Assembly: GCA_020057295.1 (NCBI GenBank)
Contig: JAGVGF010000003.1
Coordinates: 64,001 to 128,000 of the forward strand
DNA: 64,000 nt
Reading direction: 5' to 3'
Source of the DNA: an archaeon
Lineage (GTDB): Archaea > Nanobdellota > Nanobdellia > Woesearchaeales > UBA9642
The number at the start of each line of letters is the position of its first letter. Positions within the stretch are counted from its first letter, which is position 1. A model generated the notes under the pieces. The model had not been told where the DNA came from, ran no database searches, and saw nothing but the letters and a program-made list of their open reading frames with translations. Made by a program: the position numbers and the translations under genes. Positions 31,135-59,440 of the stretch are shown in pieces.

Positions 31135-32442
31135 ATGAAACATGTAAAGATTCTATTAGAGAACGAACATCTTGAAGGATTATTAATTAAAGAAGATGAT
31201 AAACATTTAGCTCTCAAATTATCTAATGGATATAATATCGGAATAAGTAAAAACAGAATAAAGAAAATTGAAGACATAAATTCTCGTGAAGATTTAGTTA
31301 AAGAACAACATTCCGAAAGGGTGCATAAAGAAATAGTCCAACATGTTTCGAAAGATGCAGTCAGTGATTTGCCTAAAGTTTTAATTTTACATACTGGAGG
31401 AACTATTGCAAGTAAAGTTGATTATCAAACTGGTGCAGTAACTCCTAAATTTACTCCTGAAGAATTGAATTCTATGTTTCCAGAAATAAAAGATATTGCA
31501 AATATAGAGAGTAGATTATTTAGGAATATGGCTTCTGATGATATGAGATTTTCTCATTACAACCTTATCGCAAAAGAGATTGAGAAAGAATTAACTGAAC
31601 ATAAAGATCTAAAAGGAATCATAATTACGCAAGGAACAGACACGATACATTATACGAGTGCAGCTCTTAGCTTTATTTTTGAACATTTACAAATTCCTGT
31701 GGTTATTGTTGGTTCACAACGTAGCTCTGATCGGGGAAGTTCTGATGCGGCAATGAATTTGATTAGTGCTGTAGCATTTATTGCAAATACAAGCCTTAAA
31801 GGAGTGTTTATATGTTTTCATGAAAATATTTCAGATGAATCATGCATAATACTTAACGGTCTTAATGCTAAAAAATTGCATTCATCAAGAAGAGATGCAT
31901 TTAAGCCAGTAAATGTTCCTTCAATCGCAAGGATAGATTATAATACTAAAAATATAGAATATGTTTCAGAACATCCAGAATCATCATTAAATAGTCCAGG
32001 AAAATTAAAATTGCATTTATTTAATGAAGATTTGAAGATTGGAATGTTAGTTTCTCATCCTAATATGTTTGCTGCAGAAATAGAACCTTTCTTGAAAGGA
32101 TTTGATGGAATAATTTTACAAGGAACAGGATTATGTCATTTTCCAATAAATGAAATTGATGAATTTACGAAAGAGCACACTAAAATAAAAGATGTTTTAA
32201 CAGAATTATCTAGTAAAATTCCTGTGGTTATGAGTTTGCAAACAGTTTACGGAAGCGTAAACATGAATGTATATAGGCCAGGAAAAGCATTAATAGAAAT
32301 GGGGATTATAGGAAATTATTCTTCATTGATAACGGAAACCTCGTTCATAAAACTTTCTTGGTTGTTATCGCAAAAACTTGATCCTAAAGAATATTTTATG
32401 AAAGATTTACGAGGAGAATTCTTGGTTAAATCTGTCGAGTAA
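31135..32442 (+). CDS. gatD: Glu-tRNA(Gln) amidotransferase subunit D
   Basis: KLSNGYNIG N-domain, TGGTIASKVDY.TGAV, GTDT, GSQRSSDRGSSD, HSSRRDAF. Confidence 0.93.
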   Translation: MKHVKILLENEHLEGLLIKEDDKHLALKLSNGYNIGISKNRIKKIEDINSREDLVKEQHSERVHKEIVQHVSKDAVSDLPKVLILHTGGTIASKVDYQTGAVTPKFTPEELNSMFPEIKDIANIESRLFRNMASDDMRFSHYNLIAKEIEKELTEHKDLKGIIITQGTDTIHYTSAALSFIFEHLQIPVVIVGSQRSSDRGSSDAAMNLISAVAFIANTSLKGVFICFHENISDESCIILNGLNAKKLHSSRRDAFKPVNVPSIARIDYNTKNIEYVSEHPESSLNSPGKLKLHLFNEDLKIGMLVSHPNMFAAEIEPFLKGFDGIILQGTGLCHFPINEIDEFTKEHTKIKDVLTELSSKIPVVMSLQTVYGSVNMNVYRPGKALIEMGIIGNYSSLITETSFIKLSWLLSQKLDPKEYFMKDLRGEFLVKSVE

Positions 32443-32548
32443 TGCATAATCGCTGTAAAACATTTTTTTAAAGCGAATTAGTCTTATTTTGTCTTCTTTT
32501 ATCTAAATAGACATTTAAAATGCTTATATTACTCTATAAACGTCTTTC

Positions 32549-32673
32549 TTAGTGTTTAAATTACACTATTATATTCTCGAGTACAACAATATTTATATAT
32601 TACTTAGTGTTTACAATACAATAAGCTAATTAAAGTTTGATTAACAAAATACTAAGTGTAAAAGATACACAAA
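32549..32673 (+). promoter_or_regulatory. NAD-operon promoter with four NrtR-like operators
   Basis: TTAGTGT-N7-ACACTAT (32549), TATA TTTATATA (32592), TTAGTGT-N7-ACAATAA (32604), TTAAAGT-N7-ACAAAAT (32630), TAAGTGT-N7-ACACAAA (32653). Confidence 0.75.
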
Positions 32674-32700
32674 GGTTAATTCGAAATCAATGAGGTCAAA

Positions 32701-34080
32701 ATGAAATTAACACATCCAGAAGAAACGGATTTATACAATGAAACAATGGATAATTTAGGTCCGAAAGAAACAGAAACAGGTTATTCAGTATGGCAGGCTA
32801 TTCCACGAGATGTTAACAAATATTTCAAACCACGAGTAATGGCTGGCACTAGAGCAATACTTAGAGATTTCTTAGACAGGAGTGATGGAGGCCTGGAACT
32901 ATGCATACTACAAGATGGTATGCCCTTTCTTCCAGGAGATCCTGTCGTTCAAGTAATAGGAGAAAAAAGTCAAGCAAGAAAATTAGAAGCTAAAATTCTA
33001 TCAACATTATTCTATATGACAGAAGTAGCAACAAGAACGAAAGAGTTAATAGATTTAGTAGGCGCTGACAGATTAATAGAAGTAGGAATGAGAGGATCAG
33101 CTCCAGGCGCATGGACATACAGTGCAGAAGCATTTTTGATTGGCGGAGGAAAATTAACTTCTAACACAACACTTCGAAACGTTCCCGGATTAGTTGAAGG
33201 AAGAGATTACAAATTAGTTGGAACAACAGGACACTCACTATATATGGAATACTTAGCAGCAGGATATACACAAAAAAATACATTCAAGATAATATTAGAA
33301 AAATTTGAGAAAAATTATTCTGGAAGACCATGTTCAATATTAGTAGATACGGTTGAACCAATGCTTGGAATAAACCAAGCATTAGATGTAATTAAGGAAA
33401 GAAAAAAAATCAGCGGACAGACACACTATATAAGATTAGATTCAGGAGATTTACTCAGTCAAGCGATTTATGCACTAAGAGAAACAGTTGAAGAAATACC
33501 TGATTTCAAAGTAATAATTGAAGACGGATTAACTGCAGATAAAATAAAACATTACGAAGCAGAAATACAAAAAGCAGGCTTCGATCCAAAGAAACACATC
33601 ATATATGGTGCAGGAGGATACTTCTTTAACAACATAACAAGAGACAGTAATGGTGCATGGGCATATAAGCCATCAGTCTATAGAACAACAAATAACGGAG
33701 ACGTAGATGTAGTAAAACTTTCTGGAAATATACTAAAGCAATCATTGCCAGGTCTAATAGGAATATCTTATGATGTTCTTGGAAAGAGATTGAATGTTCA
33801 TAACAGATATGCAGCAAACAGGATTATTACAGGAGAAACTTCTCAGGCGTATCTTGACAAAAGCATTGATGAATTAAAAAATGAAGCAAAATATTACTGG
33901 GGAAAAATGCAAGATATGCCAAAGAAATGGTATGCTGCGTATGATTTAAGTGACGAATTAACACAGATGCAGCATGATGCAGTAAAAAGAACTTACGAGT
34001 TCGGATACAAAACTATTTCATCAGAAGATTCAACACAATCTAAACAGAATCTAAAATTAGTTGTAAACGATTCTGTGTGA
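32701..34080 (+). CDS. pncB: Nicotinate phosphoribosyltransferase
   Basis: TDLY, EVGMRG, TSN, GTTGHS (phospho-His site), LVDT, IRLDSGDL, YK..VKLS..K.SLPG. Confidence 0.8.
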   Translation: MKLTHPEETDLYNETMDNLGPKETETGYSVWQAIPRDVNKYFKPRVMAGTRAILRDFLDRSDGGLELCILQDGMPFLPGDPVVQVIGEKSQARKLEAKILSTLFYMTEVATRTKELIDLVGADRLIEVGMRGSAPGAWTYSAEAFLIGGGKLTSNTTLRNVPGLVEGRDYKLVGTTGHSLYMEYLAAGYTQKNTFKIILEKFEKNYSGRPCSILVDTVEPMLGINQALDVIKERKKISGQTHYIRLDSGDLLSQAIYALRETVEEIPDFKVIIEDGLTADKIKHYEAEIQKAGFDPKKHIIYGAGGYFFNNITRDSNGAWAYKPSVYRTTNNGDVDVVKLSGNILKQSLPGLIGISYDVLGKRLNVHNRYAANRIITGETSQAYLDKSIDELKNEAKYYWGKMQDMPKKWYAAYDLSDELTQMQHDAVKRTYEFGYKTISSEDSTQSKQNLKLVVNDSV

Positions 34081-34122
34081 ATATAATTTGATAATATTAT
34101 GGCTGACAAAATAACAAATAAC

Positions 34123-34143
34123 TTAGTGTTAATTTAACAATAA
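34123..34143 (+). promoter_or_regulatory. NrtR-like operator upstream of pncA
   Basis: TTAGTGT-TAATTTA-ACAATAA, same half-sites as the 32604 site. Confidence 0.7.
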
Positions 34144-34171
34144 GAAAAGAAGATTATTGGAGGAAAATAAA

Positions 34172-34858
34172 ATGAAAACAAACGACTTAAAAGAAATGAG
34201 CAAAGAAAATACATTTTTTTACATGGTAGATATGCAAAACGATTTCGTGAAACCAGGAGGAGCATTATACGTTCCAAAAGCAGAAACGCTAATATCGACG
34301 ATACAAAAATTACAAGGATATGCAAGAAAGAACGGGATAAGAGAATACGCAAGCGTTGACAATCATTTCTACAGTGATGCGGAGATATCTGATAATCCTA
34401 CATGGTCTACAACATTCCCTCCACATTGTATGGATGGAACAGTAGGACAAAAGATTGTTGATGAATTAACAATTCCAGATGTATTTCCTATTGTAAACAA
34501 GATTGATGAAAAGGGAACAAAAAACGAAATCAATATTTATGATTTAAAGAGCGGCTTAACATATAATAGAAACGTTGTTTTCAGTAAGCAATCTACAGAT
34601 GTAACGACGAATCCACATTTTGCAGCAGCGATGAGTTATCTGAAAAGCGAAGGCGTAAGAAATGTGGTAGTATATGGTGTGGCAACAGATTATTGTGTAA
34701 AAGATGCAGTATCGGGTCTTCTTGCAAATGGTCTTGACGTATTTGTTGCCCAAGATGCAATAACAGGCATAGTTCCAGAGAACTGCAAAAAAACACTGGA
34801 CGATTTCATAACAAAGAATGTCAAGCTGATACAAACTTCAGACTTGTTAAGTCAATAA
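34172..34858 (+). CDS. pncA: Nicotinamidase (isochorismatase family)
   Basis: VDMQNDF..GGAL.V, D.H, FPPHC, K, GVATDYCV. Confidence 0.88.
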   Translation: MKTNDLKEMSKENTFFYMVDMQNDFVKPGGALYVPKAETLISTIQKLQGYARKNGIREYASVDNHFYSDAEISDNPTWSTTFPPHCMDGTVGQKIVDELTIPDVFPIVNKIDEKGTKNEINIYDLKSGLTYNRNVVFSKQSTDVTTNPHFAAAMSYLKSEGVRNVVVYGVATDYCVKDAVSGLLANGLDVFVAQDAITGIVPENCKKTLDDFITKNVKLIQTSDLLSQ

Positions 34859-34876
34859 AAACTAAAGGTGATTTCA

Positions 34877-35806
34877 ATGACAAACAAAAATTTAACAAAT
34901 AAAAATTCGATGAGAAAAATAAATTTACCTCACATGAATCCTAAAATTGTAAGTGAAGAGATAGGATCATTCGTTATCGAGACAGTAAATTCTGTAAATG
35001 CATCAGGATGTGTCATAGGATTATCGGGTGGTATTGACTCTAGCACGACTGTTGCCTTAATAAAAAATGCATTCGATATCTACAACAGCAGTCATGAGAA
35101 AAAATTAGAAGTTGTAGGATACATATTGCCCTCTAAAATCAACAGCGCAAAAGATACAGAAGATGGTGTGCGTATAGCTGACATTTTGAAAGTACGTTAT
35201 GAAGTGATAAATCTTGACAGAGCTATTGAGGGATTCAAGACAACAAATCCTGAGGCATTTGAAAGAAGATATGATCAAGGAAATATGATTTCTAGAATAA
35301 GAGCAAACGTTCTATCAACAAAAGCAGCAATAGAAAATAAAATAATTGCAGGCACAGGCAATAAGGATGAAGATTTTGGTGTAGGATATTATACTTTATT
35401 TGGAGATGGAGCAGTTCATCTAAGTCCTATAGGCGGGTTATCAAAAAGACTTGTGAGACAAATGGCGGAGCATTTAGGATTGCCGAAAGATTTAGTGTAT
35501 AGAGAACCTACAGCTGGATTGGAACATGGACAAACAGATTTCACAGATTTAGGGTATAAATATGATGTTGTGGAACTAGTTACAGAAGGCATTCATCAAG
35601 GATTTAGTGTTGACGAATTGATATCTCATGAACAAATAAAACCTTTGGTCGAATCGCAGATAAAAATGCTGACGAACCCTAAATTACAAACTGTAGACGC
35701 AGTAGTTTATGATATTATGCGAAGACATGAAATCGCAAATGCAAAGGTAAAGATAATACATCCGCCAGCAGCGCCTATAACATTAGGTTATAATGGATAT
35801 AGTTAA
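34877..35806 (+). CDS. nadE: NH3-dependent NAD+ synthetase
   Basis: GLSGGIDS, GN..SRIR, GTGNKDE..GYYTLFGDG, PTAGL..GQTD; no glutaminase domain. Confidence 0.92.
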   Translation: MTNKNLTNKNSMRKINLPHMNPKIVSEEIGSFVIETVNSVNASGCVIGLSGGIDSSTTVALIKNAFDIYNSSHEKKLEVVGYILPSKINSAKDTEDGVRIADILKVRYEVINLDRAIEGFKTTNPEAFERRYDQGNMISRIRANVLSTKAAIENKIIAGTGNKDEDFGVGYYTLFGDGAVHLSPIGGLSKRLVRQMAEHLGLPKDLVYREPTAGLEHGQTDFTDLGYKYDVVELVTEGIHQGFSVDELISHEQIKPLVESQIKMLTNPKLQTVDAVVYDIMRRHEIANAKVKIIHPPAAPITLGYNGYS

Positions 35807-35822
35807 AATCGGTGTGATTAAA

Positions 35823-36869
35823 ATGAAACAAATTGAAGAGCTCGTTGGAAAAAGCTATATGACATGTTCAGCATGTATGTCTGTATGGGCTGATGGTTTG
35901 AGCTGGGCCAATGCACATACTGAAGCAGTGACAACCAAACTTTCCGAGGCAGATAATATTATTGTATTATCCTGTCAAGTTACGGATTTAGCTGTACTGA
36001 GTGATTTACGAACCATAGAAAAATATCATTCAATGTTTCCTGAGAAGAATTTTTTCATTAGCGGATGTCTGGCAAAACGCGAAGATGTTTCATTGCCAAG
36101 TTTTGCTGAAAGATTAGATACTCCGCGAGAGAATTATCAATTCATAACTAATCGTCGACTTGTGAATTTCGAAAAACCTTTTTGGACTCCAGAATTTAGT
36201 GAACAAGATTCAGACAAGGTTGATGGACATCTATTCAGAGATATGTATCCATTGCGTATAAGCAAGGGTTGTCCAAAAAAGTGTTCTTATTGTACTATAA
36301 GAATTACACGCGGAGATTTCGAGAAATTAGAAACATCACTCTTGGAGAAAGAATTCTTGAAATTTGATGATATACTATTAATTGCAGACAGCCCGACGGT
36401 TAGTCAAATCAAACAATGGTATGGCATTGCATTGAAACATCAAAAACCTTTTTCGATAAGAAATGTCGAACCTTCTGTGACTGTGGCGTGTCGTGAAGAA
36501 TTAAATGATTTGGCAGATAAAGGATTGTTAAAGGTTTATCATTCTCCTGTTCAGAGTTCAAATCCCGAAGTTTTACTAGATATGCGTCGTCCTGTAAATG
36601 CGACTTTAGAAACTATGGCTATAGCTAGTGAATTAAAAAATAAAGGTGTGTATATAGCGACTAATATCATAATCGATTATAAAAACTATTCTCAAGATTT
36701 TAGCAAGATATATGCATTGTATGATTATGTTAGTTGGAATCCTCTATGGGATGGTGTTTGGAATAGAGATAAGGCCGAGAAAAGATTTGATTTGTATATT
36801 AATTCAGGGATAGTTCCTGGAGAAGTTGAAAGAGCACTTGTAAATTGTGGAAAATCATTATCAAAATAA
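35823..36869 (+). CDS. MiaB/RimO-like radical SAM methylthiotransferase lacking a TRAM domain
   Basis: N-terminal three-Cys MTTase pattern (ACMSV, ADNIIVLSCQV, ISGCLA), ISKGCPKKCSYC..RG, HSPVQS....VL.DMRR. Confidence 0.8.
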   Translation: MKQIEELVGKSYMTCSACMSVWADGLSWANAHTEAVTTKLSEADNIIVLSCQVTDLAVLSDLRTIEKYHSMFPEKNFFISGCLAKREDVSLPSFAERLDTPRENYQFITNRRLVNFEKPFWTPEFSEQDSDKVDGHLFRDMYPLRISKGCPKKCSYCTIRITRGDFEKLETSLLEKEFLKFDDILLIADSPTVSQIKQWYGIALKHQKPFSIRNVEPSVTVACREELNDLADKGLLKVYHSPVQSSNPEVLLDMRRPVNATLETMAIASELKNKGVYIATNIIIDYKNYSQDFSKIYALYDYVSWNPLWDGVWNRDKAEKRFDLYINSGIVPGEVERALVNCGKSLSK

Positions 36870-36896
36870 AATTTAATAATTATTCGGAGGCAAAGT

Positions 36897-37901
36897 ATGA
36901 ATATAGGATTATATGGTGGAAGTTTTAATCCCGTGCATAATGCACATTTAGATATTATTAAAGATATCTTGTCAAAAAAACTCGTTGATCAAGTATGGAT
37001 TCTGCCTTGTAAGAATCATGCATTTGACAAAGAGTTGGCACCAATTGATAATCGTTTGGAAATGTTAGAGTTAGCTTTATCAGATTTAAAATCTGATTCT
37101 CATCTTCCTGTGAGAGTAGATTTGACAGAATTAGAGATGTCAGGAAAGAGTTATACTTCTGATACTGTAAAATTATTACGAGAAAAATATTCTTCTGAAA
37201 AATATAGATTTAGTTTTATTTGCGGTGCTGATGTCTTGCCCACATTTGATAAATGGCATGATGTTGAATATATTAAAAAAACCCTTCCAATAATTTTAGT
37301 CAAACGTCCAGGATACATTATTAATTCAACTATAAGAGAAAATTTGCTCCTAGATGCAATAATAGAAAATGATAGCAATATATCTTCTTCTATAATAAGA
37401 GAGCGTATAGCGTTGAATAAATCTCTCGCGGATCTTGTTCCGCAAAAAGTAGAAGAATATATAAATATTCATAAATTATACTCTAACATGGTCAGATATA
37501 CTAATCCTGCAAGTACTGTAGATTTAATAGTTCCAACACAAAAAGGAATAGTTTTCATTAAAAGAAAACATCCTCCATTCAAGGGTAAATGGGCTTTTCC
37601 AGGAGGATATCTTAACACTGATAAAGAGACTTTAGAAGAAGCAGGTGTCAGAGAGCTTTTTGAAGAAACACATCTTGTCGCAAAGCCAGAAGACTTAGTG
37701 TTGATGGGTGCATATTCTGAACCTAAACGCGATCCGCGCGGACATGTCATTGCTCATGCTTATATCGTAACAAAATTTTCTGGGACATTAAAAGCAGATG
37801 ATGATGCAGCTGAAATCGCTGTGTTTAAAATCAAACCTGAAGATTTGGCTTTTGACCATTCAAGAGTATATGATGATTACATTAAAAAATATGGTGTATA
37901 A
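36897..37901 (+). CDS. nadD: Nicotinate-nucleotide adenylyltransferase fused to a Nudix (ADP-ribose pyrophosphatase-like) domain
   Basis: GGSFNPVHNAH, SYT.DT, GAD, ISSSIIR; C-terminal WAFPGG...RELFEET and RDPR. Confidence 0.88.
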   Translation: MNIGLYGGSFNPVHNAHLDIIKDILSKKLVDQVWILPCKNHAFDKELAPIDNRLEMLELALSDLKSDSHLPVRVDLTELEMSGKSYTSDTVKLLREKYSSEKYRFSFICGADVLPTFDKWHDVEYIKKTLPIILVKRPGYIINSTIRENLLLDAIIENDSNISSSIIRERIALNKSLADLVPQKVEEYINIHKLYSNMVRYTNPASTVDLIVPTQKGIVFIKRKHPPFKGKWAFPGGYLNTDKETLEEAGVRELFEETHLVAKPEDLVLMGAYSEPKRDPRGHVIAHAYIVTKFSGTLKADDDAAEIAVFKIKPEDLAFDHSRVYDDYIKKYGV

Positions 37902-37902
37902 C

Positions 37903-38772
37903 ATGAATATAAAAAATGTTTTAATAACCACTAAGCAAACAGCCTTAGAATATTATAGGCAAAATTATGATGTTCCGGAGGAAGTAATTCCTGCTGATTT
38001 GTTAGTGTCTAAAAAGCGAGAGCATTCTGAGCATTATAATTCTATAAAAATAATTAAAGATGCTTTAGAGAAACATAACATATCTTATCATGTTGTGTAC
38101 ATGCCTTATGCTGCGCACGAGGAGTTTATTGGCAGAGATCTTGTTATAGCTGTTGGTGGCGATGGTACTGTATTAAATACGGCTAGATATATCAGAGATA
38201 ATACTCCTTTACTAACTGTGAAATCAGAAGGTGATAGTGTGGGTGCTTTGTGTACTATTAAAGCCAAAGACTTTGTTGAAACTTTTGAAAAGATACTTTC
38301 TGGAAATTTTAGGATAGAATTATGGAATAGAGCTGAAGGAAAATTTGGTAACAAAACAGACATAGCTCTTAATGAAATAGCTATAGGAACCAAACATTTT
38401 AACGGTATGGCCACTTATGAAGTAAAGTTTGGTGATAAGAAAGAAATTCAGAGAAGCAGTAAAATAATTGTCAGTACAGGTGCAGGATCAACAGGATGGT
38501 ATAATAATATTCATAACAGTAACGGCGTATTTCATCCATCAATATCGGAATTAAGGTTTACAGTATCAGAGAGTATCAAGTCGCATAATTATAAGATGTT
38601 GCATGGTCATGTCATGCCCGGAGATGTTTTAGAGATAGTGTCTTTGATGGATACTGAAGGAACTATAAGTTTTGATGGTGATAAAAATAAGCGCATGTAT
38701 AATTTTCCTATTGGTCAAAAGATTTGTATAAAAATTTCTGACAAGCCGTTACATATGATTTTTACTAAATAA
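37903..38772 (+). CDS. nadK: NAD kinase
   Basis: GGDGT, ALNE, STGAGSTGW, FDG. Confidence 0.82.
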   Translation: MNIKNVLITTKQTALEYYRQNYDVPEEVIPADLLVSKKREHSEHYNSIKIIKDALEKHNISYHVVYMPYAAHEEFIGRDLVIAVGGDGTVLNTARYIRDNTPLLTVKSEGDSVGALCTIKAKDFVETFEKILSGNFRIELWNRAEGKFGNKTDIALNEIAIGTKHFNGMATYEVKFGDKKEIQRSSKIIVSTGAGSTGWYNNIHNSNGVFHPSISELRFTVSESIKSHNYKMLHGHVMPGDVLEIVSLMDTEGTISFDGDKNKRMYNFPIGQKICIKISDKPLHMIFTK

Positions 38773-38823
38773 TAATTCAGTTTAGTTATAGTTTATTTAG
38801 CTGTATATCAAGATGAGATAAAA

Positions 38824-39285
38824 ATGAAATATATTGAATGCCCGGAAAATTATGAGAAAGAATTAAATTCGCCAGTTTCTCTCTTCATTGCTGGAGGTAT
38901 CACTGGTTGTACTAATTGGCAGAACAAATTTATTGAGCTGCTTAAAGATGAAGATGTTGTTTTATTAAATCCTAGAAGAAAGATATTCTCTGAAAATGAT
39001 CCTAGCATTTCTGAACAGCAGATACTGTGGGAACATGTTTATCTAAAAAGTGCTGATGCGACTTCTTTTTGGTTTACTCCAGAAACGTTATGTCCTATAA
39101 CTCTATTCGAGTTAGGAAAACAACTTTCATTGAACAAGCCGTTGTTTGTAGGCATACATCCTGAATATGCTAGGAAAAAGGATTTGGAGATTCAGGTGAA
39201 ACTTATAAGACCAGATATTAAGATAGTATACGATCTAGAATCTCTTTCTTCTCAAGTAAAGAACTGGCTTAAGCAAAAAATTTAG
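38824..39285 (+). CDS. Nucleoside 2-deoxyribosyltransferase-like protein
   Basis: LFIAGGI...WQ, NPRR, QILWE, CPITLFELG. Confidence 0.8.
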   Translation: MKYIECPENYEKELNSPVSLFIAGGITGCTNWQNKFIELLKDEDVVLLNPRRKIFSENDPSISEQQILWEHVYLKSADATSFWFTPETLCPITLFELGKQLSLNKPLFVGIHPEYARKKDLEIQVKLIRPDIKIVYDLESLSSQVKNWLKQKI

Positions 39286-39317
39286 ATGTACAAATTTTTA
39301 TAATTATATTCTTTTGT

Positions 39318-40817
39318 TTAATCTACTTGTTTTTTCTCTGCTGCTAGAATCATATTAGTAGGAGGATATTCTATTTTCTCTAAGTTCTTTCCGTTCATTA
39401 CGTATAAATTAACTTTTCCCGTATACATTTTATCTATAATATATTTACTACTAAATGTTTTTGAACCATTAACTACTCTATATCCGATTTTGTTCAATTT
39501 TTTTGTCCAATCACTAAAACTCCAGAATCCAAATTCTTCGTGCATTTCACTCTTCCAATTATCCGTGTAGTTCATTTTACTTATGTACTCGTATGCATTC
39601 TGTAAGGTTGTTTTGATATATGTTTTGTTTTTTATAACTGTTTTAATATAGGTTATTTTTCTCTTATTGAAATCTTTGACAAACTGGAAAAATTTATGGT
39701 ATGTTGATAGTTGGTTTATTTTTCCAGAACTTTTTCCATCTGTGCTATTTAAATCCATATAGACTATTTTCTCTCCATGTTCTGGTCCGACCACATCACG
39801 TATTATTATTCTTCCACCATCTAATAACTGGTTATGCGTATGTTCCAAAACTTTTACAAGTTCTTTTTCACCAATATATGAGTACACTTCATGAAGAACT
39901 GAAGAGTATATAAATGAATTTATAGTGTTATTCTTAAAATTCTGATCCATGATATTTCTTCTATAAAAAAACACGAAAGGATTGGAGTAATCCTGTAACT
40001 TACAATATTCGTAGAATTTTCTTGTAGCTTCAATGCCTATTATATCTGATTCTGGAAAATTCTTTGCTAACAAGTTAATCAACGCTCCAGTTCCGCATCC
40101 AACATCAACAATTTTTCCTTCGCAAATGAAAGGCTTTATATCATTAAATTTGAATTCCATATTCTGGTCCATTCCTTTAGCATATGTTCCATAATCTCTG
40201 GTGTCTGTTATATCTGCATCTTCATTTAGTAATCCGTCCGAAAATAATTCTATTATTAAATCTCCTACATTATATTCTAAGAATATGTCTTGGGTTGCTG
40301 ATGAAGCATATTTTTTCCAATTATTGTCATTTTTCCAGTTTTTTCCTGATTTAACTAATATATTGATTACCTCAAAAGGTCTTAATGTTGAATACTTATT
40401 TTTTCTTTCATCTAAAAGTTCTGCTGGTAAATTTTTGAATTTTAATTTCCTAAATTGTTTAATAACATCTGGTGTAGAACAAGCAAGTATAGTGTTTGCT
40501 GGAGTTAATTTTTCCTGTCCTTGATAGAATATCTGACTTATTATGTATTTAGCGAATTTCTCTGTCTGTTGAACATCTGGTACAGGATATATTTTAACTT
40601 CACAGCCGAGATCCCTAGATAATTTTTCTATTGCCATAGATCTTAAGTATAAAGGCACAGGATTTCTTCTGGTGTTCGAATGATTTGCCGATGTTATTGC
40701 AAATATTATTTTATCAACTTTTAATCCATCAATACCTTGATCAACTATTGATCTTAAGTAAGTGTATTGAAAATTTGTTAACATATGATGTCTTCCAGGG
40801 AATAATATGCTTACCAT
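39318..40817 (-). CDS. NadM-like nucleotidyltransferase-fold domain fused to a class I SAM-dependent methyltransferase
   Basis: N-terminal FPGRHHMLTNFQ and ITSAN.SNTRRNP; C-terminal VDVGCGTG, SSVLHEVYSY, GGRIIIRD. Confidence 0.75.
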   Translation of the reverse strand: MVSILFPGRHHMLTNFQYTYLRSIVDQGIDGLKVDKIIFAITSANHSNTRRNPVPLYLRSMAIEKLSRDLGCEVKIYPVPDVQQTEKFAKYIISQIFYQGQEKLTPANTILACSTPDVIKQFRKLKFKNLPAELLDERKNKYSTLRPFEVINILVKSGKNWKNDNNWKKYASSATQDIFLEYNVGDLIIELFSDGLLNEDADITDTRDYGTYAKGMDQNMEFKFNDIKPFICEGKIVDVGCGTGALINLLAKNFPESDIIGIEATRKFYEYCKLQDYSNPFVFFYRRNIMDQNFKNNTINSFIYSSVLHEVYSYIGEKELVKVLEHTHNQLLDGGRIIIRDVVGPEHGEKIVYMDLNSTDGKSSGKINQLSTYHKFFQFVKDFNKRKITYIKTVIKNKTYIKTTLQNAYEYISKMNYTDNWKSEMHEEFGFWSFSDWTKKLNKIGYRVVNGSKTFSSKYIIDKMYTGKVNLYVMNGKNLEKIEYPPTNMILAAEKKQVD

Positions 40818-40838
40818 ACCATTATAAAAACCTAAACA

Positions 40839-40869
40839 TTTAAATACCTTATTGTTTTATAGACATGAA
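40839..40869 (+). promoter_or_regulatory. nrtR promoter with NrtR-like operator
   Basis: TATA TTTAAATA 40839-40846 followed by TTATTGT-TTTATAG-ACATGAA 40849-40869. Confidence 0.6.
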
Positions 40870-40902
40870 GTCAAATTAAAGCTGAAAATTAAAGGTGTTG
40901 GG

Positions 40903-41562
40903 ATGGATAACGAGTTGTCTAAATATGAAAAGCCTTCTGTAACTGTAGATACGGTTATTTTTAGTATAAAAGAAAATGATTTGAAAGTTTTATTAGTAAA
41001 AAGATCTTCTTCTCCGTTTAAGGATAAGTGGGCTATTCCTGGAGGATTTGTCAAGATTGATCAATCTCTAGAAGATGCTGCAAAATTTAAATTAGAAGAA
41101 AAGACAGGCGTTAAAGATGTATATTTAGAACAATTATACTCTTTTGGCAGTCCTAAAAGAGATCCTAGGGGACGAGTTATAACAGTAACATATTTTGCAT
41201 TAATAAATTCTGATAATGTAAAGCTTAAAGGCGATGATGCTAAGTGGTTTTCCATTACTGAATTACCACAAGTTGCATTCGATCATAATACAATATTAGA
41301 TTATGCATTAAAAAGATTAAAATGGAAATTTGAGTATACCGTTGTAGCATTTTCTTTACTACCTAAAAAATTCACTATGACTCAAGTTCAAGATTTATAT
41401 GAAATTGTTTTTAATCAAAAATTTGATAAGAGAAATTTTAGAAAGAAAATTTTATCTCTTAATATCCTTGAAGAACAGGAAGTTATGAGGAACGTTTCAT
41501 TTAGACCGCCACAATTATATTCTCTAAAAGCAAATATTGGAGAGATAGTTAATATTTTGTAA
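40903..41562 (+). CDS. nrtR: Nudix-related transcriptional regulator
   Basis: Nudix fold with degenerate box (AAKFKLEEKTG), LEQLYSF..RDPR, AFDH, C-terminal wHTH FTMTQV..DKRNFRKK..RPPQLY. Confidence 0.88.
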   Translation: MDNELSKYEKPSVTVDTVIFSIKENDLKVLLVKRSSSPFKDKWAIPGGFVKIDQSLEDAAKFKLEEKTGVKDVYLEQLYSFGSPKRDPRGRVITVTYFALINSDNVKLKGDDAKWFSITELPQVAFDHNTILDYALKRLKWKFEYTVVAFSLLPKKFTMTQVQDLYEIVFNQKFDKRNFRKKILSLNILEEQEVMRNVSFRPPQLYSLKANIGEIVNIL

Positions 41563-41583
41563 ATCGCTTATTTTGTGAACATT

Positions 41584-43461
41584 ATGAATAACACTCTAGA
41601 TTATAAAAAGATTGGATTGAAGGCCGGTTTGGAGATTCATCAGCAGCTTGATACGAAGAAATTATTTTGTGATTGTCCTTCTGAAATGAGAGATGATTCT
41701 CCTGATAAGACTGTTAAAAGAGTTTTGAGAGCGATTGCTGGAGAGACAGGAGATGTTGATATTGCCGCGAAAGCAGAAATGGAAAAAGGCAAAAATTTTG
41801 TGTTCGAATATTATGATGACACAACATGTCTTGTGGAATTGGATGAAGAACCTCCACATGCGATTAATAATGATGCTTTGAATGTTGTTCTGCAATTTTC
41901 TAAAATTGTTGATGCACAAGTTGTTGATCAAGTTCATGTTATGAGAAAGACTGTTGTTGATGGAAGTAATGTTTCAGGATTTCAAAGGACAGCTCTTGTT
42001 GCAAGAAATGGAATAATGCCTGTAGATATCTCAGAAGGATCTGAGTCTAAATCGGAATCAAGAATTTTGAATGTTGCTATTGATACTTTATGTATTGAAG
42101 AGGATGCTGCTCGTATAATTAAAAGAGAAGCAGGACAAGACATTTACCGATTAGATAGACTAGGAATTCCATTAATTGAAATTGCAACAGGTCCTGACAT
42201 GAAAACTCCTAAAGAGGTCAAAGAGGTTGCTGCACACATTGGAATGTTGCTCAGAAGTACAGGAAAAGTAAAGAGAGGTTTAGGAACAATCAGACAAGAT
42301 GTGAATGTTTCTATCGAGAGTGGTGCAAGGGCAGAAATTAAAGGTGTTCAAGATTTAAGATTAATCGATACTGTTGTTGAGTTGGAAGCATTACGTCAAG
42401 TTAACATGCTTAAATTACGTGAAGAGATGCGTGTAAAAGGAATTAAAATCGAAAATTTAAATGATGAAGTTAAAGATTTTACTGAAGATTTCAGAACTGT
42501 TCAAAAAGGGTTCATAAAAACAGGAATAGATTCTGGACTTAAAATATACGGTAAATCTTACGCATTATTCAAAGGATTCTTTGGTTATGAGATAAATCCT
42601 GGCAGAAGATTTGGCACAGAATTAAGTGATAGAATTAAAGTTTTAGGATTAAACGGTCTTATTCACTCGGACGAAGTTTTAGAAAAATACGGAATAATTG
42701 ATATAGTTCAACATATTTATCATAAATGTGAATTGGGTTCAGATGATGGCATAATATTTATTCTAGGTTCTGAAGATAAATGTTTATTAGCATTCAAAAA
42801 AATTGATGATTCAATAAAATATTTTTTAGAAAAAGGTTTATCTAAAGAAGTAAGAAATGCGAAAGAAGACGGAACATCACAATTCTTAAGACCTATGCCG
42901 GGAAGTAGTAGAATGTATCCAGAAACAGATATTCCGGTAATACATCCAACATTAGAAGGTGTTGGGATGCCAGAATTAATTAAGGATAAGACAGAAAGAT
43001 TTGTTAAAGATTATGGATTACCAAAACAGGTTGCTAAAGAATTAATCTTTGAACCAAATTTCGAACTATTCGTTAAGAAATATCCTCAAATAAAGGCGGT
43101 AACTATTGCTGAAGGTTTAGATAGTATGTTAAAAGATCTTAAAACAAGATACTCCTTGGATGTTCAACCATCATTCGAACAATACGATCAAATATTTTCT
43201 AAATTAAATACGGGCGATATTGCAAAGGAAGCATTATTTGAGATTTTACTTGCTATTGGAAAAAACGAACAAGGAAAAATTATTGATTTCTCAAAATATC
43301 AAACTAATGAAGATGAAGTTATAGAATTTATTACTCGAACAATCTCTGAAAAACCTGGATTGAATAGCAATGCTATTATGGGTTTAGTAATGAAAGAATA
43401 TCGTGGAAAGTTTTCAGGACAAAAAATACTTGAATTAATTAAGAAATACAAAGGAGAATAA
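41584..43461 (+). CDS. gatE: Glu-tRNA(Gln) amidotransferase subunit E
   Basis: GLEIHQQL, DEEPPH, DGSNVSGFQRT, RLDRLGIPLIEI, RGLGTIRQDVN, RMYPETD. Confidence 0.95.
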   Translation: MNNTLDYKKIGLKAGLEIHQQLDTKKLFCDCPSEMRDDSPDKTVKRVLRAIAGETGDVDIAAKAEMEKGKNFVFEYYDDTTCLVELDEEPPHAINNDALNVVLQFSKIVDAQVVDQVHVMRKTVVDGSNVSGFQRTALVARNGIMPVDISEGSESKSESRILNVAIDTLCIEEDAARIIKREAGQDIYRLDRLGIPLIEIATGPDMKTPKEVKEVAAHIGMLLRSTGKVKRGLGTIRQDVNVSIESGARAEIKGVQDLRLIDTVVELEALRQVNMLKLREEMRVKGIKIENLNDEVKDFTEDFRTVQKGFIKTGIDSGLKIYGKSYALFKGFFGYEINPGRRFGTELSDRIKVLGLNGLIHSDEVLEKYGIIDIVQHIYHKCELGSDDGIIFILGSEDKCLLAFKKIDDSIKYFLEKGLSKEVRNAKEDGTSQFLRPMPGSSRMYPETDIPVIHPTLEGVGMPELIKDKTERFVKDYGLPKQVAKELIFEPNFELFVKKYPQIKAVTIAEGLDSMLKDLKTRYSLDVQPSFEQYDQIFSKLNTGDIAKEALFEILLAIGKNEQGKIIDFSKYQTNEDEVIEFITRTISEKPGLNSNAIMGLVMKEYRGKFSGQKILELIKKYKGE

Positions 43462-59272: not shown

Positions 59273-59336
59273 CGGGCGTGATGTTCAGTCACTACGTTCG
59301 GAACATCAGCCGTTCGTTTCACTACCGGGCGTGATG
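59273..59336. repeat. 11-bp duplication of the tRNA 3' end flanking a 42-bp REP-like insert
   Basis: CGGGCGTGATG at 59273-59283 and 59326-59336; TCACTACGTTC core inside a GATGTTC/GAACATC stem. Confidence 0.65.
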
Positions 59337-59400
59337 GGATTTGAACCCACGACCTAAGCATTAGGAGTGCTTCGCGCTATCCAAGCTGCGCTACGCGCCC
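59326..59400 (-). tRNA. tRNA-Arg(CCT)
   Basis: Reverse complement GGGCGCGTAGCGCAGCTTGGATAGCGCGAAGCACTCCTAATGCTTAGGTCGTGGGTTCAAATCCCATCACGCCCG folds as a cloverleaf; anticodon CCT; no intron, no encoded CCA. Confidence 0.93.
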
Positions 59401-59440
59401 ACTTTCTTAGAATGGATAGAGCTTTTAAAAAGTTTTAGAA

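Follow-up and report, generated by a model that had tools for sequence, protein, structure and literature searches.

NrtR is a repressor that binds 21-bp palindromes with a GT-N7-AC core and is freed from DNA by ADP-ribose (Rodionov et al. 2008, PMC2330246). Phages carry modules for nicotinamide adenine dinucleotide (NAD) as well: phosphoribosyl pyrophosphate (PRPP) is a cost of NARP2 (bioRxiv 10.1101/2024.02.11.579819), and in RyDEP an accessory glycosidase within a phage NAD operon feeds NAD resynthesis (bioRxiv 10.64898/2026.05.28.727677). Methylthiotransferases (MTTases) fall into four clades, of which RimO alone acts off tRNA (PMC10702137). Here we describe an NAD(P) salvage island of a DPANN-type archaeon, located in a 64,000-nt stretch (positions 64,001 to 128,000 of contig JAGVGF010000003.1, assembly GCA_020057295.1) that we call the window. 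Besides salvage genes and a predicted nrtR, the island carries genes for an MTTase-like radical S-adenosylmethionine (SAM) protein, a nucleoside 2-deoxyribosyltransferase-like (NDT-like) protein and a protein in which a NadM-like domain is fused to a SAM methyltransferase (hereafter the fusion).

We consider it probable, with some reserve, that the region is an NrtR-repressed NAD(P) salvage island together with three independent accessory modules that have NAD-related roles. The NrtR salvage regulon is an ordinary system in an unusual host, and the three uncharacterised accessory families are the new element. The original prediction had treated these three genes as surplus to salvage and proposed that they make, recycle or repair a modified nucleotide. 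Rare co-occurrence of the three families with NAD genes would have counted against that proposal, but it is not rare: in 30 of 59 loci the radical SAM gene is surrounded by at least three NAD families, at least one lies near the NDT-like gene in 29 of 76 viral loci, and the fusion gene adjoins NAD genes in six of six. Independent data sets support a link between the three families and NAD modules. Since each of them occurs independently of the others, we regard them as separate modules and not as one pathway. Gene content, operators, co-occurrence and folds were observed directly, whereas all substrates and products named below are inferred. Loci and genomes are given L and G numbers where they have to be told apart.

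The NAD(P) island and its putative operators

The island spans window positions 32443-41570 and exactly fills the gap between gatD and gatE, as delimited by open reading frames (ORFs) and a Pfam/NCBIfam scan. The original prediction had mentioned neither this position nor the operators described below. Its genes and borders are as follows.

31135..32442, plus strand: gatD, left border (Asparaginase and GatD_N domains)
32701..34080, plus strand: divergent nicotinate phosphoribosyltransferase, pncB-like (PF04095 NAPRTase, 26 bits against a cut-off of 20.8)
34157..34858, plus strand: nicotinamidase pncA, likely start 34172 (Isochorismatase, 75.7 bits)
34868..35806, plus strand: NH3-dependent NAD synthetase nadE (NAD_synthase, 173.7 bits; TIGR00552, 163.9 against a cut-off of 63.65)
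35793..36869, plus strand: MTTase-like radical SAM protein without TRAM, 358 aa (UPF0004 PF00919, 27.9 bits, cut-off 27; Radical_SAM, 36.3 bits)
36897..37901, plus strand: nadD, nicotinate mononucleotide (NaMN) adenylyltransferase, fused to a Nudix hydrolase (TIGR00482, 147.4 against a cut-off of 112.45; NUDIX, 58.9 bits)
37903..38772, plus strand, ORF opening at 37798: divergent NAD kinase nadK (PF01513 NAD_kinase, 32.2 bits)
38824..39285, plus strand: NDT-like protein (PF15891, 57 bits, above the gathering cut-off of 30)
39318..40817, minus strand: NadM-like nucleotidyltransferase-fold domain plus class I SAM methyltransferase, 499 aa (Methyltransf_31, _11 and _25 above cut-offs)
40903..41562, plus strand, ORF opening at 40852: nrtR, predicted Nudix-related ADP-ribose-responsive repressor (NrtR_WHD PF21906, 78.7 bits; NUDIX PF00293, 60.2 bits)
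41575..43461, plus strand: gatE, right border (GatB_N, 184.7 bits)

The seven plus-strand genes from pncB-like through pncA, nadE, radical SAM, nadD-Nudix and nadK to NDT-like are co-oriented, and the first 14 nt of the radical SAM gene lie within the end of nadE. The fusion gene converges on the NDT-like gene across a 32-nt gap and diverges from nrtR, which ends 12 nt before gatE. This order, the co-orientation and the divergence of the fusion gene from nrtR had been read from the letters beforehand, and the ORFs and the Pfam/NCBIfam scan bore them out together with all of the domain calls. The likelier starts, read from the sequence, are ATG codons at 34172 (pncA), 37903 (nadK) and 40903 (nrtR). 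The host genome has 1,201,343 bp in 6 contigs with 31% G+C (completeness 100, contamination 0.46), and the archaeal markers CDC48 and GatD/GatE adjoin the island. A tRNA-Arg(CCT) at 59325-59401 on the minus strand is the sole tRNA or Rfam match in the window.

PncA, PncB, NadD, NadE and NadK, the deamidated Preiss-Handler set, all score above Pfam cut-offs; the route that had been called complete is thus present by this measure. The NCBIfam cut-offs are passed by nadD and nadE and failed by the pncB-like gene (NF006695, 86.8 bits, far under 469), by pncA (NF008623, 57.9 bits, under its cut-off) and by nadK. The closest solved relative of the pncB-like protein is the NAPRTase 2f7f (E 1.5e-9), and its family is present in 24 loci and in phage Phosso. 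NadK matches solved NAD kinases at E 1e-9. A LarE-like or QueC-like identity of nadE was ruled out, as TIGR00268 and TIGR00364 give 20.8 and 17.6 bits against cut-offs of about 150 and TIGR00552 passes; the length of NadE (short NH3-type or long Gln-type) did not track with presence of the radical SAM gene. Hidden Markov models (HMMs) built from the island proteins found pncB, pncA, nadE, nadD and nadK nowhere else in the genome, nadD-Nudix is the single CTP_transf_like gene genome-wide, and no NadA was found in the genome by Pfam. This indicates that the island is the only detectable NAD(P) route that can be predicted for this organism. Nicotinamide and nicotinate would be converted to NAD(P) by PncA, PncB, NadD, NadE and NadK, and the Nudix domain would recycle ADP-ribose.

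The predicted NrtR has both a Nudix-like and an NrtR winged-helix domain above Pfam cut-offs, and its score for NF050029 (195 bits) does not reach the equivalog cut-off of 400. By analogy with known NrtR proteins, it would repress the island and leave the DNA in response to ADP-ribose. The consensus and core that were used to search for operators were taken from PMC2330246, and the following unstranded palindromes were found.

32549-32569: putative NrtR operator 1, upstream of pncB, 1 mismatch to TTAGTGT-N7-ACACTAA
32604-32624: putative NrtR operator 2, upstream of pncB, 1 mismatch to the same consensus
32653-32673: putative NrtR operator 3, upstream of pncB, 2 mismatches to the same consensus
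34123-34143: putative NrtR operator 30 nt ahead of pncA, 1 mismatch
40849-40869: weak operator-like palindrome between the fusion gene and nrtR, 3 mismatches

Three of these lie in the 258-bp leader of pncB, and the palindromes carry the GT-N7-AC core of NrtR operators. Genome-wide, all three sites with at most 1 mismatch are in the island, as are 4 of the 15 with at most 2. At up to 3 mismatches the window holds 11 sites against 5.9 expected, a number reached by 7 of 100 shuffles and therefore not above chance. The same motif recurs in related loci, upstream of pncB (L022, L023, L029, L032, L036, L060), of pncA (L032, L034) and of nrtR (L022, L023, L029, L060, L076). It also lies between the fusion gene and nrtR in L021 and L041, where the sites are better than that at 40849 of the window, and in L034, L044 and L025 it immediately precedes the radical SAM gene. 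The TATA-like sequence TTTATATA stands immediately upstream of operator 2 and may be an archaeal promoter to which the bound repressor would block access.

In 11 loci outside the window (L033:5685-5969, L022:5487-5783, L076:6847-7131 and 8 more) we observed a conserved protein of about 90 aa that is soluble, ends in ...AGW.V.Y..DQRDGDY..F and has no Pfam or NCBIfam match. Its gene is often the first past the NrtR operators, before pncB.

The three accessory families

At E<=0.001, 482 of 2044 candidates are homologues of the radical SAM protein. Among 1.84 billion representatives, a profile search placed the family in 73 clusters at 50% identity (E<=1e-30), with a sharp drop in score to other MTTases. 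In an alignment of 88 sequences the UPF0004 cysteines C28, C61 and C92 and the CxxxCxxC cysteines C160, C164 and C167 are invariant, as are many Arg and aromatic residues. The AlphaFold2 (AF2) model has a mean confidence (pLDDT) of 95, and the top 8 Foldseek matches of this model are MiaB, MtaB and RimO (E 6.9e-14 to 1.5e-11, TMq 0.58-0.63, 14-16% identity). TIGR00089 gives 72.5 bits and does not reach its cut-off of 251. A TRAM domain was found neither in the window protein by Pfam nor in the family, whose profile ends at the C-terminus of its members; full-length members have 327-393 aa, with one of 475, and at 327-393 aa they leave no room for TRAM. A separate canonical MTTase with TRAM (462 aa, 23% identical to the radical SAM protein) is encoded on contig 4. 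Taken together, alignment and profiles place the protein in a discrete TRAM-less clade of the MTTase superfamily, which is predicted to keep both Fe-S sites.

To characterize its neighbourhoods, 10 loci were fetched from genomes, 80 from metagenomes and 7 from IMG/VR. Dropping 6 loci with an identical radical SAM protein left 84, of which 59 have at least 2 kb of flank and 25 have less, and NAD families were counted within 6 kb of the gene. At least one NAD family was present in 33 of the 59 flanked loci and at least three in 30; with shorter flanks, 7 of 25 had at least one. Among the 33 loci with at least two NAD families, nadE occurs in 27, nrtR/Nudix in 22, pncA in 22, nadD in 21, nadK in 18, pncB in 18 and pnuC in 12, and of the labelled genes, the one most often immediately next to the radical SAM gene is nadE (12 times in 85 loci). 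For a relative that is only 41-49% identical, Pfam confirmed a full set of neighbours: PncA, canonical NAPRTase, Nudix, NadE, NadD, CinA, NrtR with its winged helix, and NadK. Gene orders differ widely between the NAD-linked loci, which include bacterial-type contigs of 49-51% GC. In a FastTree phylogeny of 88 rows the NAD label falls mostly in two clades, 22 of 25 rows in the window's clade and 16 of 27 in the other, and phage-like rows lie between them. The label changes 11 times on this tree against a shuffled mean of 29.3, and none of 500 shuffles was as low; the test shows clustering only, because kin are not independent. The link is present in at least two deep clades and in shuffled gene orders. 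The three genes called surplus are not random cargo.

The radical SAM family is found mostly in viral sequence, and its nearest ESM Atlas cluster is 74% viral. It had no match among INPHARED phages and no PHROGs family. In PADLOC neither the radical SAM nor the NDT-like protein matched a defence family, and there were weak matches only to the methyltransferase domain (mad2, 26.5 bits) and to Nudix (PDC-S07, 31.3 bits). A second, unrelated radical SAM family (MoaA/viperin-like, 290-320 aa) was observed in NAD clusters, in 6 radical SAM loci and 2 NrtR loci (for example L076:9132-10004, L087:7440-8408, L135:5340-6218 and L136:5713-6585). In L087, four radical SAM genes stand consecutively beside nadD and nadK.

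The NDT-like protein has 258 homologues, and its AGGI, NPxR, WE and PIxLxELG positions are invariant or nearly so. E96 of PITLFELG is invariant in 31 sequences. This Glu of the ELG motif may correspond to the nucleophile of NDT-type enzymes and to the catalytic Glu of DNPH1. The only solved relative is the uncharacterised 4mcj (family profile match at E 4.2e-13), which shares the family PF15891 with the window protein; no characterised relative was found by sequence. Eleven NAD loci contain the gene, in most cases next to nadK or nadD, and G203 of the same genus has it as well. Among the 200 other genomes sampled from the phylum, its profile matched in 6, all weakly (36-62 bits against 250 for the window gene) and on contigs other than that of nrtR; these matches were treated as paralogues and not used.

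A search of IMG/VR that was independent of the radical SAM gene gave 209 viral relatives of the NDT-like protein; 80 of these were retained, and in 76 the ORF was called. Within 8 kb, 29 of the 76 loci had at least one NAD family and 17 had at least two. Genes of the NAMPT/Namat family were found in 17 of the 80 and of the Prs/Adps family in 16, often in the order Nudix-NAMPT-Prs-NDT, with HMMs that do not separate NARP1 from NARP2 enzymes. Five records of jumbo phages, cultured or assembled, contain an NDT-like relative. In Sinorhizobium phage Phosso it is the last gene of a cluster in which nadE, NAPRTase, Nudix, NMNAT and a gene for a PncA-like hydrolase share its orientation; Phosso is a cultured 469-kb phage, and this module (L221, PV764938.1 260911-275285) is of the deamidated Preiss-Handler type. 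In Tunturiibacter phage Tunturi_5 the relative forms the N-terminus of a 1262-aa protein, which is labelled a Nudix hydrolase by annotation only. The family is widespread in jumbo phages beside NAMPT/Namat- and Prs/Adps-family genes. A non-homologous IU-type nucleoside hydrolase stands in a similar position in L121. The NDT-like protein is most likely a feeder glycosidase that acts on a nucleoside or nucleotide, because of its NAD-module contexts, its NAMPT/Prs neighbours, the hydrolase of L121 and the precedent of RyDEP. It would release the base from nicotinamide riboside (NR), nicotinamide mononucleotide (NMN) or NaMN for PncA/PncB or NAMPT, or supply ribose-5-phosphate for PRPP. Such a salvage role is a simpler reading than the modifying role that had been proposed.

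The fusion has a methyltransferase domain with PF13847, PF08241, PF13649 and PF08242 above cut-offs and the SAM loop DVGCGTG, and ends in a C-terminal beta-rich region. Its AF2 model has a pLDDT of 92, and Foldseek of the whole model returned only methyltransferases, which act on small molecules; the domain resembles class I enzymes of this kind. By family profile, residues 30-139 match the archaeal NMN adenylyltransferase NadM (MJ0541, 1f9a; E 9.2e-6), with which the N-terminal domain shares an SAxxxxTxxNP stretch. The score for TIGR01527 (21.8 bits) does not reach the cut-off of 181.2, and ESM Atlas searched with residues 1-205 gave only leads scoring below 0.9. Unlike NadM, the domain is joined here to a class I methyltransferase and the beta-rich region. 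We found 982 homologues of about 500 aa, 55-70% identical, across DPANN and the Candidate Phyla Radiation (CPR), and the profile had no viral relative in IMG/VR. In the window, L021 and L041 the fusion gene and nrtR are divergently oriented. L027 has a methyltransferase-only form, whose neighbours are the radical SAM gene and a Nudix/NrtR fragment. The phylum sample contains two copies, both in NrtR-positive genomes: that of G015 is one ORF away from the gene of an ADP-ribosylglycohydrolase (ARH), and that of G117 adjoins pncA. Hence, in all six loci examined, the gene adjoins nrtR, ARH or pncA. The fusion gene shares the operator-bearing intergenic region with nrtR, and its product probably binds a pyridine mono- or dinucleotide and methylates this or a related metabolite.

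Variation of the locus in the genus and the phylum

The gatD-gatE gap was compared in 12 other genomes of the genus. The gap is closed, gatD directly adjoining gatE, in four of them (G205, G143, G139, G204), and contains nrtR alone in G189 and nadK alone in G177. Four further gaps (G017, G201, G090, G202) hold unrelated genes; such genes in the genus encode reverse transcriptase, PIN, phosphoribosyltransferase (PRTase), glycosyltransferase and AsnC regulators. The gap of G154 measures 12 kb; the Pfam scan of the gaps covered 33 of the 51 listed ORFs, all from genomes other than G154. G203 has a sister island with pncB, pncA, a Gln-type nadE, nadD-Nudix, pnuC, nadR, nadK, NDT-like, an aldehyde dehydrogenase, a WbsX-type glycosyltransferase and nrtR, in which NDT-like is kept and the radical SAM and fusion genes are absent. 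A metagenome relative (L032/L045) has its island in the same gap. These comparisons suggest that the gap is a variable locus and that the island has been wholly or partly lost in most relatives. The single-gene remnants argue that an ancestral island eroded, rather than that it was recently inserted.

A strong NadE match was found in 3 of the 13 genomes of the genus (G000 and the 12 others). The other ten had weak PP-loop matches only, and therefore a host may have to supply NAD to most of the genus. NAD autonomy is an accessory trait in this DPANN genus, with an island that is kept or is partly or wholly lost at one locus. In the gap of G202 (L014, G202:C1:21500-36000) a reverse transcriptase with HTH_40, PIN, GATase/PRTase, glycosyltransferase, histidine phosphatase and methyltransferase genes were observed; the gap behaves as a variable hotspot and in this genome may contain cargo of the defence type.

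In the phylum, NrtR was found in 24 of the 200 other genomes sampled. The core of pncB, pncA, nadE, Nudix, nadD and nadK recurs in 20 fetched NrtR loci that have no radical SAM gene. The radical SAM gene is a rare option of NAD islands and no core part of them, because none of the 200 genomes carries it while the core of NrtR islands recurs without it.

Other gene contents of the NrtR islands of the phylum were also observed. Three DPANN islands (L121:5840-8564, L132:4682-8453, L133:16285-19095) have extra genes between nadD and nadK, namely those of a Ser/Thr protein kinase, a protein of about 320 aa and a protein of about 300 aa that matches only the pyruvate kinase barrel, and L121 additionally has the IU-type nucleoside hydrolase. 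L123:13286-14317 encodes quinolinate synthase NadA (325.6 bits) inside an NrtR island; therefore pieces of the de novo route also occur in such islands.

Rival readings and comparison with known systems

Several observations weigh against our preferred reading. About half of the flanked radical SAM loci have no NAD gene and are phage-like, with YopX, Tad4, HNH, RtcB (8 loci), Thg1, RNA ligase, PTH2 and HAD_SAK_2 as neighbours and many small ORFs of no family (140 of 192 ORFs scanned); the RtcB, Thg1, RNA ligase and PTH2 contexts would suit an RNA substrate. None of the 7 IMG/VR radical SAM loci has an NAD gene within 10 kb. Absence of the radical SAM gene from the phylum sample counts here as well, as does presence of the fusion in only 2 of those 200 genomes, and 4 of the 6 fusion contexts were picked via the radical SAM gene. 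In the 20 NrtR loci of the phylum neither the radical SAM nor the NDT-like gene was found, and most NrtR islands are without all three. Context labels come from HMMs of the island's own proteins with Pfam spot checks only, and the pncB-like and nadK products, above Pfam cut-offs, are far below the NCBIfam equivalog cut-offs. The N-terminus of the fusion reads FPGRHHMLTNFQ and does not contain the nucleotidyltransferase motif HxGH, in whose place GRHHMLT stands; the domain may therefore only bind nucleotide and not transfer it.

Part of this evidence would be explained if the radical SAM protein were an RNA-modifying MTTase of phage origin, for example one that makes 2-methylthioadenosine (ms2A) on tRNA, and clustered with NAD genes because auxiliary genes of phages had been transferred together. 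It shares its fold and both cluster motifs with MiaB, MtaB and RimO, and the largely viral ESM Atlas cluster, the seven IMG/VR loci and the RNA-related genes (with HAD_SAK_2) beside the non-NAD copies agree with such an origin. However, no member has the RNA-binding TRAM, a canonical TRAM MTTase is already in the genome, an NrtR operator stands directly upstream of the radical SAM gene in three loci, and the NAD linkage appears in separate clades and differing gene orders, including the bacterial-type contigs. We consider this explanation unlikely, although the RNA-repair contexts in phage-like loci leave it some weight. A small-molecule substrate is favoured, since TRAM is missing, the genome has a separate canonical MTTase and many Arg and aromatic residues are invariant, and because of where the operators lie and how close nadE is. 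Under our preferred reading of three separate NAD-related modules, the radical SAM enzyme would use radical chemistry to introduce sulfur or a methylthio group at a C-H bond, and its substrate would be a phosphorylated small molecule from the NAD pool, not tRNA. Candidate substrates are nicotinate adenine dinucleotide (NaAD), NAD and ADP-ribose, with adenine C2 as precedent.

The proposal that the three genes form one pathway, for making, recycling or repairing an analogue of NAD or ADP-ribose that is methylated or methylthiolated, is not supported and now appears quite improbable. One NrtR-linked cluster does contain all three, in the window as in L021, a modified nucleotide could in principle be built and trimmed by enzymes of these classes, and equal longest-contig values (7210, 299323 and 12607; 160124, 214906, 31788 and 10480; 16275, 18433, 34680 and 11440) suggest shared contigs for each pair. 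Yet they are not co-inherited: among the 33 radical SAM loci with at least two NAD families, NDT-like occurs in 8 and the methyltransferase in 2, G203 has NDT-like and neither of the others, in viral loci NDT-like stands without the radical SAM gene, and no viral relative of the fusion was found. That the accessory genes are merely unrelated cargo of a gatD-gatE hotspot, with no tie to NAD, is contradicted by the co-occurrence counts, and we regard it as very improbable; the gap does hold unrelated genes in other genomes of the genus, whereas the same families stand beside NAD genes in unrelated loci without gatD or gatE. An extension of our preferred reading is bolder, and we give it little credence: the TRAM-less enzyme would be a fifth MTTase clade that places methylthio groups on adenine C2 or the pyridine ring of free NaAD, NAD or ADP-ribose, creating in episymbiotic archaea and giant phages a private pool that NAD-cleaving immune enzymes do not see or that cannot be converted to immune signals.

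NAD supply is a central point of conflict between phage and host and between symbiont and host. In searches of full texts, no link of NrtR or NAD salvage to an MTTase or a deoxyribosyltransferase-like gene emerged; supplementary tables (e.g. Table S2 of the NARP preprint) may list such neighbours. In the accessible text of the virus NAD survey PMC9503650, 'radical SAM', 'MiaB', 'methylthio', 'deoxyribosyltransferase' and 'NDT' have 0 occurrences each, and in that of the NARP1/2, NARP3 and RyDEP papers (10.1101/2024.02.11.579819; PMC13464706; 10.64898/2026.05.28.727677) the same is true of deoxyribosyltransferase-like and radical SAM. 'Radical' and 'methyltransferase' likewise have 0 occurrences in the available part of PMC2330246, where the three extra members are not named; in the accessible portions of all five sources the three families go unmentioned.

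In its regulator, the island resembles the bacterial NrtR regulons of PMC2330246, with a Nudix plus winged-helix repressor and operators upstream of pncAB, nadDE-type genes and nrtR itself, the effector there being ADP-ribose. Unlike those described in the accessible text, it belongs to a DPANN-type archaeal host, lies between gatD and gatE and has three extra members. The phage modules NARP1, NARP2 and NARP3, which rebuild NAD (bioRxiv 10.1101/2024.02.11.579819; PMC13464706), involve NAMPT/Namat, Prs/Adps, NMNAT/Nudix and PnuC-NadR families. The gene combination of Phosso is not among NARP1-3 as described in the available parts of these sources. Unlike the phage modules, that of the window is cellular, linked to NrtR and of the deamidated PncA/PncB/NadE route. 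The known modules (NrtR regulon, NARP1, NARP2, NARP3) consist of classical salvage enzymes, and three uncharacterised families repeatedly join such modules; each of them is a testable entry to NAD-linked chemistry. With MiaB, MtaB, e-MtaB and RimO (PMC10702137) the radical SAM family shares the three UPF0004 cysteines, CxxxCxxC and the two-domain fold (E 6.9e-14, TM 0.60). It differs from them, as far as they are described there, in lacking TRAM and in having its own C-terminal DYVSWNPLWDG motif, and from known MTTases in a genomic context of NAD salvage or phage genes and not of translation. If a small-molecule role is true, the TRAM-less family would be only the second MTTase group, after RimO, to act off tRNA, and possibly the first with a small-molecule substrate.

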